The notes below the pieces were generated by a model that saw nothing but the letters and a program-made list of their open reading frames with translations, was not told the DNA's origin and made no database searches. Below, in pieces: positions 22,157 to 25,935 of a stretch of 34,932 nt of DNA (position 1 is its first letter; every line of letters begins with the position of its first letter). Where the stretch lies: assembly GCA_052086865.1 (NCBI GenBank), contig JBQGOU010000001.1:1-34932 (forward strand). The letters are read 5' to 3'. Source of the DNA: Cellulomonadaceae bacterium. Its GTDB lineage: Bacteria; Actinomycetota; Actinomycetes; Actinomycetales; Cellulomonadaceae. Position numbers and translations under genes: made by a program.

Positions 22157-22525
22157 GTGCTCATCACCCTCTGGAACCTCAGCATCCGAACCCGCATCTT
22201 CCTGCGCCGCCGGATGCCCACCAACATCCTCCTCGACCGGCTCCGCACCAGAACCGGGCTGAAGTGGGGTGTCCCGGCGATGCTCCTCGGCGTCGTCTAC
22301 ATACTCATCGCCGCCACCTGCACCGGCCTCATCGAGCAAGGCTGGAGCAGATGGCTCTACTTGGTCTTCTTCTGGGCACTCTGGAACGGGCTGAAGTTCT
22401 TGCTCTTCGGACCGTGGAGCCTGATCCTCCTCGCCCGCGTCCGCATACAGGAAGCACGAGCAGACAGAACCCTCCGTGGCAGCGGACGCCTCGAGCAGCC
22501 AGTTGGCTATCTCTCGAACCAGTGA
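22157..22525 (+). CDS. Small membrane protein of unknown function
   Basis: GTG at 22157 after GAAAGTGAGG. Basic N-terminus ([14 protein letters not shown]) then about two TM helices ([29 protein letters not shown]). Overlaps the convergent NACHT gene by 19 bp. Confidence 0.75.
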
Positions 22526-25500
22526 TTCCTGGTTGCGATCTCCGCGAGCGGCCGGGTTCGGGTCGCCGATCGTGTGCCGAGTTTGTCGACTGCGATCTGC
22601 ACGAGGTCCGCAGGCCACTCGCCCGGACTATCTAGGATCGACTGAGCGGTCTTAATGGGCATGGCGACGAGTCGGGCAGGGTCGGCCCAGCCTCCGACAG
22701 GCATTGAGGTGCGAGCGTCTGCGAACGTGTCCAGCTTGAGCTTCCTGGTCGATTGTGCTGCCCTCACCACAGATCGGCCGTCGTGTGTTCCGGCCAGGAA
22801 CACGTCCCGAATCTCTGGCTCGAGATGCGGCGGGATCCGCTCACGGGTTGTGTCCGACCCGACGATCCAAACCAACCAGAGAGCTCTGCCCGAAAGCGAG
22901 ATCTGTCGGAGCCGGAGCGCCTCGCTCAGGTCGAGAGTTCGTATGCGGTGCGCAGCCGCGTCGCGTTGCATTGCACGTTCAACAGCACGGAACATTCTGG
23001 GCTCGAGGCGAGTAAGCGCCGAGTCGAACGCCGAGGAGAGTTCGATGATGACGCTGGTCCGTGCGGACTCGAGGAGCGCAATGATCTTGAGCGCCAACGA
23101 CGTCTGGTCGGTGGTGGTTCCCAGGATTTCGTTCCACCATGCAGCATCGGTCTTGTGTGATCGAAAGCCTGTTTCATCTTGTGCTGCACGAGTCAGCGAA
23201 TCGTGTTGAGATCGTAGAGCCATCAGCGAAAGATCCACCGCGTCCGGGGTCATTGATACCGCCCGTCGAAGCAGCCACCCATCACCCCAGAGCTCTGCGA
23301 TCGTGGCAAGGTATTCAAGCCAATCGTTGTCCGTGTTCGGGTCGGAGGAGCCGTTCCGAAGCGAACGACTGCCCTGCGCCGCGCGAGCAGCGAGCGTCGA
23401 TCGTGTCGATGAGCTGACAACGGGTATTGAACGGGTGGCGACGTACGGCCCGGCGAGGACATCTGTGGCGCAGGAGACGAGTATTTCGACATCACTTTCG
23501 GCGCTGACTCTCTCCGCAACCTCCGCGTAGCCCTGGTTCAGGCTGTCGACGATCGCTCGTGCTATCGCGTCGTCGGTTCCGTCATAACCGCCATGGAGCA
23601 GTAGCTCAGCGGACCATTCCGGGGAGTGCATCGTTGCGTTCACGGCACTTCGAAGGTCACCGATCCGATCGGCTGGGAGTCTGGAGAGCACGCGCAGACG
23701 GGAAGCGGTCAGTAACCACTCGTCGGTCGGAGCGAAGCGCGCCCACCACCAACCCGTGAGGTCGTCATCGACGACTGCGTGAGCCAGGAGGCACTGCTCG
23801 ACGAGTACGCGGACGGAACCACGGGGTGTGGCCGGCAGGCGGTCTTGAAGATGAGCTACTGCCTGTGCGCGTCCAGCTTCGTCCCCGAGGCGAAGCGGCG
23901 TCCCCGCCGGATCCAGGATCCCGTCCTCTGCGAGAACAATTCCCGGCCCATCGAGCGCGAAGTCGACAATCTCTCGCATCTCGACGGATGTCAGACTGTC
24001 GTAGATGCGGTCGTTGAGTAGCGTCACCGCCATCGCCCGAACCAACGGGTGCGGTGTGACGCGTTTCTCGACTTCACGGAAGTTCCCCTTCAATCCTCGA
24101 ACCTCGCCGCGTGCTAGTTTGCCGATGAAGAACCTGCAGACGTTCGCCCAGTACGGTCGCTCCAACAGTGCGTTGAGCCCGTCATCTCTTGAGTTCCCGT
24201 TGCCTTTAGGGGTGAGGTTGTCAAAGATGTGGAGCGCCGCGAAGTACTCGCGGAGAGACTGCACTTCAAACTCGAAGGCGTCCTCGCGCTCGACCATGCA
24301 CAACACGCGATCCGTGATTGCGGAGTAGAGCTGGTCTGCAAGTTCTTGCTCGCGCGGGCGTCCCGCAAGGTAGGTGCGAAGCAAATCTCGGAGTTCGTCG
24401 CGTTTGATCGATCCGGCGCTTTGCCCTTCCTCCGCTTTGGTTTGCAGGTACCAGCCGAGGTACGCATGCGTCTCTTCCACGACTCGACGCTGGTCTGCGA
24501 GGAGAGGCTCTTTGTCTTCGCCTTGCTCTCGGTCAAGGAAGGTCTTCAAGTACTCCTCGTAGAGCTCCGTCCGCTGTTGCGGAAGTAGCTGACGGCGATA
24601 GAGGAGATGAAGCAGAATCGCGAGTTGCATCGGATACGACGCAAGCTCGTTGACATGGGGCACATGCTGGCTGTCCATGAAAGTTGTCTGTAGTTTGCTC
24701 GCAGCCTCCTGGGACAGGGCCGATACGTCGCACCACTTCTGGAGGTACTGGAGCCGTAGTCCCTGTGTGAGGCGCTGCAGATGAAGAACCGGGAACACGT
24801 TTGATGCGGTCAGCGGCTGCAGCGAGGTTCCAGGCCGCGTCGCAACGAGGATGACGAGATCCGCAGCGTCCGCTTTGAGTCGCCCCCGCATCAGTGTGAT
24901 CTCCTCGACGACACGCGCCCGTGTGTGGAGGTTCGCGACCTCGTCCAGTCCGTCGAGTGCGAGGAGCACCGGTTCGGTGGCTAGCAGCAGTGCCAGATCG
25001 CGGGCGGTGAAATCGTTGGCTCCGATGTGTCGACCGACGTCCTCGATCACATACTCTTCAAGGCTCCGCCATCCATCGGTGGAGCGGGGAGGTGCCTGAT
25101 GCTTCTGCTTCTTCTTCGACGAGGGCCCGGGCGGCGGCTGGGACGCCCACTGCGCGTACTTGCGCAGTTCGATCCGCACTGGGAACCGAGCCTCGGCTTT
25201 CATGCGGGCCAGATCGGTCTGGCCGGCCGCGTAGCCCTGTTCTCCCAATCTCCCGGCGCGATGGAACTGACACACATACTGCAAGACGGTGGACTTCCCT
25301 TGCCCAGGCCCGCCCACAAGGACCGCATGACCTTTCCAATCCGGATGAAGCAAGGCCTGCGCGGCGCCGGTCACCACGAGTCCTGACTGGCGCTCAAGCC
25401 CGTCCGTATCGCCCGGTGCAGAAGCGGCAATCCTCTCAAGCAACGTTGCCAACGCAGATCCATCACGTCGACACCCGACAGGCACATCGACGAACATGGC

Positions 25501-25935
25501 GTCCACCGACGGGCCGCAGAGGTCAACCTGCTGAAACTGGACTGATCCCTCAGCCGCGAATCGGTCACCCAAGTACGCGCGAAGCGTTCCCTCGAGTTCG
25601 GCCCTCCGGGCCTGGTTCTTTTCGTGGCGCCTCTTGATCGCGATCAAGTCGTCGACCGTGTACCCCGCACCATGATTCGCGTCGATCATCGTGTGATGCG
25701 TCGGACACATCAAGACGAGATTGTCGTATCCATCGACATCGACAAAGCCAGGATCGTAGCGGGGGCCTCCTACGCTTCGTGCCCGAATATGGGCTTCCTC
25801 ACCGATGACCTTGACGCTCGAAGAGCCACCCGCCGTCCTCACGGTGATGGTGAGAGCCTGCAAGCAGCCGGGAAACGCGCACTGGTCATGCGCGCGGGAC
25901 CACAAGGTCTTCCGCGCGGGATCCTTGATGCCCAT
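22507..25935 (-). CDS. HNH endonuclease-NACHT (STAND) NTPase fusion; candidate NLR-like anti-phage protein
   Basis: First ~105 aa: CAFPGC...GEEAHI...GGPRY...[15 protein letters not shown] (Zn-binding HNH). Then Walker [10 protein letters not shown], Walker [11 protein letters not shown], sensor-1 LVATRP, ASYPMQL (GxP-like), winged-helix [14 protein letters not shown], and a long uncharacterised C-terminus. RBS GGGAG. Confidence 0.85.

Follow-up and report, generated by a model that had tools for sequence, protein, structure and literature searches.

Both HNH and restriction endonuclease (REase) domains are listed among the effectors of bacterial NACHT (bNACHT) proteins (Kibby et al., bioRxiv 10.1101/2022.07.19.500537), and NACHT modules with TPR or other sensors are named as fusion partners of the HNH clade of SPARHA and Cap5 (PMC12738770). 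SPARHA and Cap5 HNH nucleases are activated by tetramerisation; tetramers are not universal, since bNACHT11 forms a 7:7 complex (bioRxiv 2024.12.17.629029). On the sensor side, 684 clusters have been defined, 90 of them Avs families (Lee et al., PMC13581612). We analysed a stretch of 34,932 nucleotides (the window) from a Cellulomonadaceae bacterium (contig JBQGOU010000001.1 of assembly GCA_052086865.1), in which a gene at positions 22507..25935 of the minus strand encodes a protein with HNH and NACHT-like modules, designated P0001.

The class of P0001 and the HNH-NACHT fusion are thus known, and the term "new system", under which the gene had been put forward in an earlier note, is overstated as far as architecture is concerned, because such fusions are already in print (Kibby et al.; PMC12738770). 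What stands out is a C-terminal tail without clear match among solved structures and the absence, throughout the family, of the winged-helix histidine that is normally autoinhibitory, as does a basic loop of the NTPase that tracks the HNH effector. P0001 is probably defensive.

Domain organization of P0001

Features of the gene are as follows.

22507..25935, minus strand: HNH-NACHT-helical C-terminal protein P0001, 1142 aa (open reading frame without stops)
25600..25935, minus strand: Cap5/SPARHA-type zinc HNH, residues 1-112 (profile, PDB and structural matches)
24211..25599, minus strand: NACHT-fold module of nucleotide-binding domain (NBD), helical domain 1 (HD1) and winged-helix domain (WHD), residues 113-575 (Pfam and structural comparison)
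25291..25314, minus strand: Walker A, residues 208-215 (alignment)
25066..25143, minus strand: basic low-confidence NBD loop, residues 265-290 (model and alignment)
24940..24963, minus strand: Walker B LALDGLDE, residues 325-332 (fits the NACHT signature D[GAS]hDE)
24235..24276, minus strand: WHD motif, residues 554-567, with residue 558 at the canonical His position (alignment)
23836..24210, minus strand: region resembling helical domain 2 (HD2), residues 576 to about 700 (aligned ranges of the model: 108-750 to NOD2, 115-698 to NLRP3)
22510..23835, minus strand: all-helical C-terminal putative sensor, residues about 701-1142 (model, fold searches, profile)

The N-terminal nuclease is a Cap5-like zinc HNH, as had been noticed from the open reading frame. 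Residues 3-110 match PADLOC models of CBASS effectors (E down to 2.5e-20), and the domain matches the PDB entries 9OM4 (SPARHA; E 1.2e-14) and 7RWK (Cap5; E 1.2e-6), the latter also in structural comparison (Z 12.4, rmsd 2.4, 101 aligned). C19, C24, C77 and H80 are putative zinc ligands. Alignment to SPARHA places H49, N72 and H81 in the active site, N72 and H81 lining up with residues mutated in AcaSPARHA, and motif position marks E46 as the bridge glutamate. Where aligned, the metal and catalytic residues are invariant (C19/C24 in 106/106, H49 in 114/114, C77/H80/H81 in 116/116 proteins), and a bridge glutamate three residues before the histidine is present in 107 of 131. Modelling of an oligomer from four HNH copies (residues 1-125) with zinc gave a score of 0.02 and was used neither for nor against any reading.

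As to the NACHT module, which had been taken to be complete, the fold stood up to comparison while the Pfam match is weaker than the cut-off requires. The full-length AlphaFold2 model (pLDDT 87.4, pTM 0.84) has NLRC4, NOD2 and NLRP3 as its best structural matches and displays the NBD-HD1-WHD(-HD2) fold of the class (NOD2: Z 19.3, rmsd 5.5, 473 aligned; NLRP3: Z 19.2, rmsd 3.9, 421 aligned), with aligned ranges that reach residues 698-750. Pfam NACHT (PF05729) matches P0001 with E 1.2e-4 and 22.4 bits against a gathering cut-off of 26.7; 9 of 13 relatives pass. The Walker A lysine K214 (119/119 aligned) and Walker B DGLDE at 328-332 (120/120 aligned) are fully conserved.

The lysine- and proline-rich loop reported between Walker A and B is present at residues 265-290. 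Its sequence is not conserved, its charge is kept, and it is confined to the HNH branch: net charge is at least +3 in 94 of 105 HNH-type against 0 of 72 REase-type proteins (184 of 388 proteins could be parsed by the pattern). Because the loop co-varies with a single clade, it counts as one event. A putative role in DNA binding may be assigned to it.

The gene is also A/T-rich, as had been remarked: its GC content is 61.6% compared with 70.6% for the genome, and only 3 of 741 genome windows of equal length are as low.

Loss of the winged-helix histidine

The WHD histidine (position of NLRC4 H443) is called defining for bNACHTs, and its mutation hyperactivates bNACHT25 and bNACHT16 (Kibby et al., bioRxiv 10.1101/2022.07.19.500537). 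In SeAvs7, ADP is held by His545 (PMC13581612). The family of P0001 lacks the WHD histidine: among 331 aligned proteins (388 examined), position 558 is valine in 330 and isoleucine in one. Register is supported by a distant NACHT protein (locus L170) that has histidine in the same ungapped motif, found as a regular-expression match. The unusual WHD motif is hence a trait of the whole family and no defect of this copy.

Four more-distant relatives with other tails have valine, isoleucine or leucine at the same position, and by alignment the loss marks a wider clade than the tail family. They are encoded at L118:5992-9954, L172:2501-5230, L173 and L174:1661-4525, and one of the four is a plasmid protein of Klebsiella variicola. 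All were left out of the family, their nuclease/NTPase part and His-less motif being alike and their tails not; the Klebsiella gene has a partial match in 3 of 5,426 E. coli genomes, annotated just as "NACHT domain-containing".

R562 is conserved in 329 of 331 proteins. Together with Q559 it is a candidate replacement for the histidine latch, judged by conservation alone. A precedent for an NLR without the WHD histidine is human NLRP6, in which the position is Asp499 and the off state is kept via ATP and contacts of the NBD with HD1, WHD and HD2 (PMC13672055). NLRP6 is eukaryotic, carries an LRR sensor and has aspartate instead of valine, so that it serves as analogy only.

The C-terminal tail

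A C-terminal region of about 550 aa, unrecognised and with no TPR, WD40 or LRR repeats visible by eye, had been described. Sequence repeats were not detected: Pfam finds no TPR, WD40 or LRR match in P0001, and none of 13 profile windows of the tail has an off-diagonal match at E<0.01. The extent has to be corrected, since the first 125 residues or so (576 to about 700) are matched by the HD2 region of NLRs. On the model, the NACHT module including this HD2-like region ends near residue 700, and the unmatched tail amounts to about 440 aa.

Folded alone (residues 690-1142), the tail is predicted to be all-helical with high confidence (pLDDT 95.5, pTM 0.92). Foldseek returned nothing at E<=0.001, and a wide fold search gave weak helical-repeat matches at most (best Z 7.6 over 60 residues). 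The modelled tail is therefore without clear PDB match, from which fold novelty does not follow. Pfam models of the SNaCT/NCH/NCAB type have no match in P0001 at E<0.1. In the ESM Atlas, unnamed clusters were retrieved at 0.91-0.92 with few shared features, and NCH2/SNaCT leads stayed below 0.9.

The tail is the most variable part of the protein. Mean family identity is 0.74 in residues 401-575 versus 0.30-0.43 in residues 701-1142, with 0.43 in the last 140 residues and 0.30-0.33 in the middle of the tail. C-terminal variability is the pattern reported for sensors in bNACHTs (Kibby et al., bioRxiv 10.1101/2022.07.19.500537).

Family members and exchange of effectors

We searched for relatives with residues 120-1142 as query and found 303 proteins among 7,996 candidates. 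Among the matches listed, 119 others are 44-78% identical to P0001, and those with names all come from Actinomycetota. A profile of the tail only reached 1,404 clusters at E<=0.001. From 149 tail matches examined, 84 have less than 400 aa upstream of the tail and were treated as fragments; the other 65 all contain a NACHT module. N-termini of these 65 comprise 39 REase and 12 HNH domains, 9 truncated ends and 5 that look REase-like by eye. Homologues of the REase form number at least 1,001 and come from several phyla, with named hosts including Pseudomonas, Xanthomonas, Mesorhizobium, Acidobacteria, Dictyobacter and Coleofasciculus. Across the family, DNase-type effectors alone were seen. By sequence comparison, P0001 is one of the actinobacterial HNH forms, a branch within a far larger family that otherwise carries a restriction-nuclease domain. 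Starting from a Stutzerimonas member, the tail by itself retrieved 2 proteins, and PDB sequences gave no useful match to the REase-type profile or to the HD1-WHD stretch.

In a tree built from hand-picked NACHT modules (26 rows, midpoint root), HNH forms constitute one branch (support 99/95) nested among REase forms, and a quick 59-row tree agrees. Since the HNH forms nest in this way, a single effector swap is suggested.

Distribution of the HNH form is patchy. It is absent from eight congeneric genomes, one of which has the REase form, and from 400 phylum-sampled genomes; at least 2 of 400 other genomes of the order have it. Phage and viral collections gave one HNH-only match, no REase-type match and one REase-type viral contig. 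Genes are intact at 20 of 22 complete loci. The two split homologues consist of two open reading frames each and lie on plasmid pAL1 (L107:10001-13463) and on a metagenome contig (L053:1142-4599).

The carrier element and its cargo slot

The gene is part of a mobile module composed of the following.

18198..21959, plus strand: MobF/TrwC relaxase-helicase of the carrier element (library matches)
22127..22525, plus strand: small hydrophobic open reading frame of no known family, which marks the cargo slot and runs into the NACHT gene at its 3' end
26148..26588, minus strand: small helix-turn-helix (HTH) protein, right end of the shared module
18398..26637, no strand: mobile module, 90-93% identical to locus L001 of a Microbacterium metagenome-assembled genome, with differing flanks

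Gene order is shared with L001 (relaxase, small open reading frame, HNH-NACHT gene, HTH). The gene had been placed between a relaxase and the end of an island; the relaxase is there, and the end has to be corrected to about position 26637, where identity to L001 stops. No tRNA was found in the window, no promoter or terminator signal exceeds chance, and terminal repeats are not evident among the listed repeats of the window. The part left of the relaxase (positions 1-18024) holds a cluster of genes for ABC/ECF transporters, for TetR regulators and for two siderophore-binding proteins that are paralogues; on that side of L001, iron uptake is encoded by another cluster.

The small open reading frame occurs in 37 of 301 genomes of the order and has no Pfam match. 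It was rejected as a partner gene both on this count and because just three of 12 compared loci (the window, L001 and L111) have it close to the HNH-NACHT gene. We inspected 22 loci with this reading frame, drawn from 20 of 44 foreign places and from contigs of the same genome, among which related elements are not independent. A relaxase is visible at 10 of the 22. Strict PADLOC defence matches lie downstream of the small reading frame at 9 of 22 loci versus 1 of 20 curated controls (p 0.007); by a mechanical rule the numbers are 14/22 versus 4/20 (p 0.005), RmrA-like genes in these slot counts being possibly regulators. The nine systems are Thoeris, Qat, IetA, PD-Lambda-5 (twice), PDC-S06 (twice), RmrA and PDC-M23. 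The HNH-NACHT gene thus occupies a cargo slot of MobF elements that often holds known defence systems.

A sister element in the same genome (L145:1199-3550, G000 contig C93) has a relaxase 85% identical and a PDC-S06 AAA protein in the slot. Other large genes, in slots or among neighbours, match PADLOC partly or not at all; they lie at L160:4729-8800 (1044 aa), L166:1751-5377 (Tmn-like, 1209 aa), L165:6293-8800 (836 aa), L111:7097-8794 (566 aa) and L045:5131-9914 (OLD/AriA-like ATPase cluster); these five are candidate undescribed defence genes.

Further, neighbours of family members were scored at 24 of 39 HNH-type loci, after near-duplicates and short flanks had been dropped, and at 20 arbitrary control regions (150 of 151 called neighbour proteins were scanned). 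A defence neighbour had to reach at least 100 bits and cover half of the PADLOC profile within 5 kb. Such neighbours are type IIG restriction-modification (RM) with PDC-S11, PDC-S28, type II RM, type I RM with RmrA, PDC-S25 and Gabija, each at one locus. More broadly, neighbours of family members include Gabija, RM systems, a SIR2 protein and Thoeris. A lenient PADLOC count (11/24) was discarded, as controls match promiscuous models equally often. No partner gene is conserved across the compared HNH-type loci, and the 150 neighbours gave no cyclase or prokaryotic Argonaute (pAgo) match. At L012:5014-12370, an REase-type relative directly adjoins a three-gene TIR/ThsB (Thoeris-like) cluster; one arbitrary control region (L125:2-2244) landed on a HamA and AbiE defence island.

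Comparison with described systems

P0001 resembles bNACHTs, for example REase-bearing bNACHT25, in being a single gene whose product begins with a DNase, continues with a NACHT fold that has the Walker B signature D[GAS]hDE and ends in a variable C-terminus. It differs in the valine of its WHD and in the lack of SNaCT/NCH/NCAB-type matches, and no tested member was identified among bNACHTs. With Avs proteins (Avs7, Avs8 and Avs10-24; PMC13581612) it shares the effector-STAND-sensor order, a helical sensor of at least 400 aa and effector swapping; Avs7 forms nuclease tetramers. In contrast to these, P0001 has no equivalent of SeAvs7 His545 and no detected TPR-like repeats. Equating the family with a tested Avs by means of mutated-residue numbers was rejected, for such nucleases commonly share a QxK position near 59-64.

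The HNH clade, active-site and bridge residues are those of SPARHA HNH-APAZ (9OM4, PMC12738770) and CBASS Cap5 (7RWK), but P0001 is without APAZ/pAgo or SAVED/cyclase and is apparently controlled by its NACHT-fold module instead; neither SAVED nor APAZ was detected in P0001, where PADLOC matches are confined to residues 1-139. Models of Erebus EruA (NF058535) and DS-8 (NF053861) match the NACHT region of relatives weakly (best 30.9 and 14.9 bits), far under their cut-offs of 1000 and 790 and with nothing outside the NTPase, and they do not match P0001 itself at E<0.1. Membership in canonical NACHT was rejected on account of the missing histidine, so that P0001 is classed as a His-less variant, and it is likewise not CBASS, SPARHA, Erebus or DS-8. 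In the literature, we found neither this family nor any bacterial NACHT clade without the histidine described, the cluster tables of Lee et al. and Kibby et al. lying outside this coverage; a family of such size is probably among the 684 sensor clusters of Lee et al.

Proposed function and alternative explanations

Domain anatomy, conserved active sites, patchy mobile distribution, effector swap and a cargo slot shared with defence systems all point to a stand-alone defence sensor-nuclease, a reading which these comparisons support in part. As to mobility, 12 of the 24 scored loci sit on a plasmid or have genes for conjugation, an integrase or a transposase close by, five of the twelve having come from a plasmid collection. 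We propose, with a probability of roughly 0.6, that P0001 is a one-gene abortive-infection system. Its tail would bind a conserved phage protein, upon which the NTPase would oligomerise; clustered HNH domains may then form Cap5/SPARHA-like tetramers and cut DNA non-specifically, aborting the infection. The basic loop might help to hold DNA, and the off state would be kept by contacts of the NBD with HD2 and tail rather than by a His-ADP contact, as the precedent of NLRP6 suggests. All steps beyond anatomy are extrapolated from Avs, bNACHT and SPARHA.

Several observations weigh against this proposal. None of the defence models in PADLOC or NCBIfam extends over the NTPase or the tail. Because loss of the WHD histidine hyperactivates bNACHT25 and bNACHT16, operation of the standard NACHT switch is not a safe assumption. 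TPR-like repeats, which are described for the majority of Avs sensors (PMC13581612), were not detected in the tail. The enrichment of defence genes near homologues that might be expected is not clear and gives at best weak support, less than the slot comparison does: by the mechanical rule they occur at 6 of 24 HNH-type loci versus 4 of 20 controls (p 0.49), or versus 1 of 20 (p 0.08) after removal of two kinase matches and one deaminase match judged to be housekeeping, and the locus in the window has no PADLOC defence neighbour. Finally, the count of mobile loci has no counterpart in the control regions, which were not scanned for mobility genes, and related loci are not independent.

The same nuclease output could be governed by a guard, that is, by a tail monitoring a host protein or process perturbed by infection. 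The pair of bNACHT25 and DnaJ (named in PMC13581612) is a precedent, the family spans several phyla whose phages differ, and the last 140 residues are better conserved than the middle of the tail. Strong tail variability nevertheless suits an arms race with a foreign ligand, and a response to single phage proteins was seen in 13 Avs families that were tested (PMC13581612); we consider a guard unlikely. If, on the other hand, the change from histidine to valine across the family left a primed, His-independent NTPase, loop and tail might sense foreign or abnormal DNA, and the protein would be a restriction-like or anti-plasmid nuclease. Exclusive use of DNase-type effectors and the charge of the loop in HNH forms are in line with this. 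The loop, however, tracks one clade, REase forms have the same tail without it, and no cognate methylase is conserved nearby, which makes DNA sensing rather improbable.

Repeated adjacency to relaxase or coupling-protein genes brings to mind a service to the carrier element, be it exclusion of competing mobile elements or addiction. Yet sister elements hold unrelated defence systems in the slot, such as the PDC-S06 of G000 contig C93, so the element does not need the gene, and an antitoxin-like partner is not conserved; such a service is very unlikely. As for a degenerate or non-defence protein, the Pfam score of P0001 under the cut-off and the two split loci could be taken as its signs. Catalytic motifs are invariant across hundreds of homologues and most relatives pass the cut-off, and we give this explanation hardly any credence.

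Significance

The abortive-infection reading has an extended form, which is doubtful at present. P0001 might represent a multi-phylum NLR-like branch that dispenses with the His-ADP latch, is kept off by another mechanism and detects a new kind of phage trigger by a sensor fold without solved relative; an actinobacterial sub-branch would have gained the tetramer-activated HNH together with a DNA-gripping loop.

The small open reading frame can be used as bait or marker for the defence cargo slot on MobF elements. Screens based on E. coli under-sample Actinomycetota; in this phylum, with environmental mycobacteria and rhodococci among the carriers, the family offers candidate sensors. Human NLRC4 and two bacterial NACHTs become hyperactive when they lose the WHD histidine, and the family is also a natural test of how an NLR-type off state is kept in its absence.

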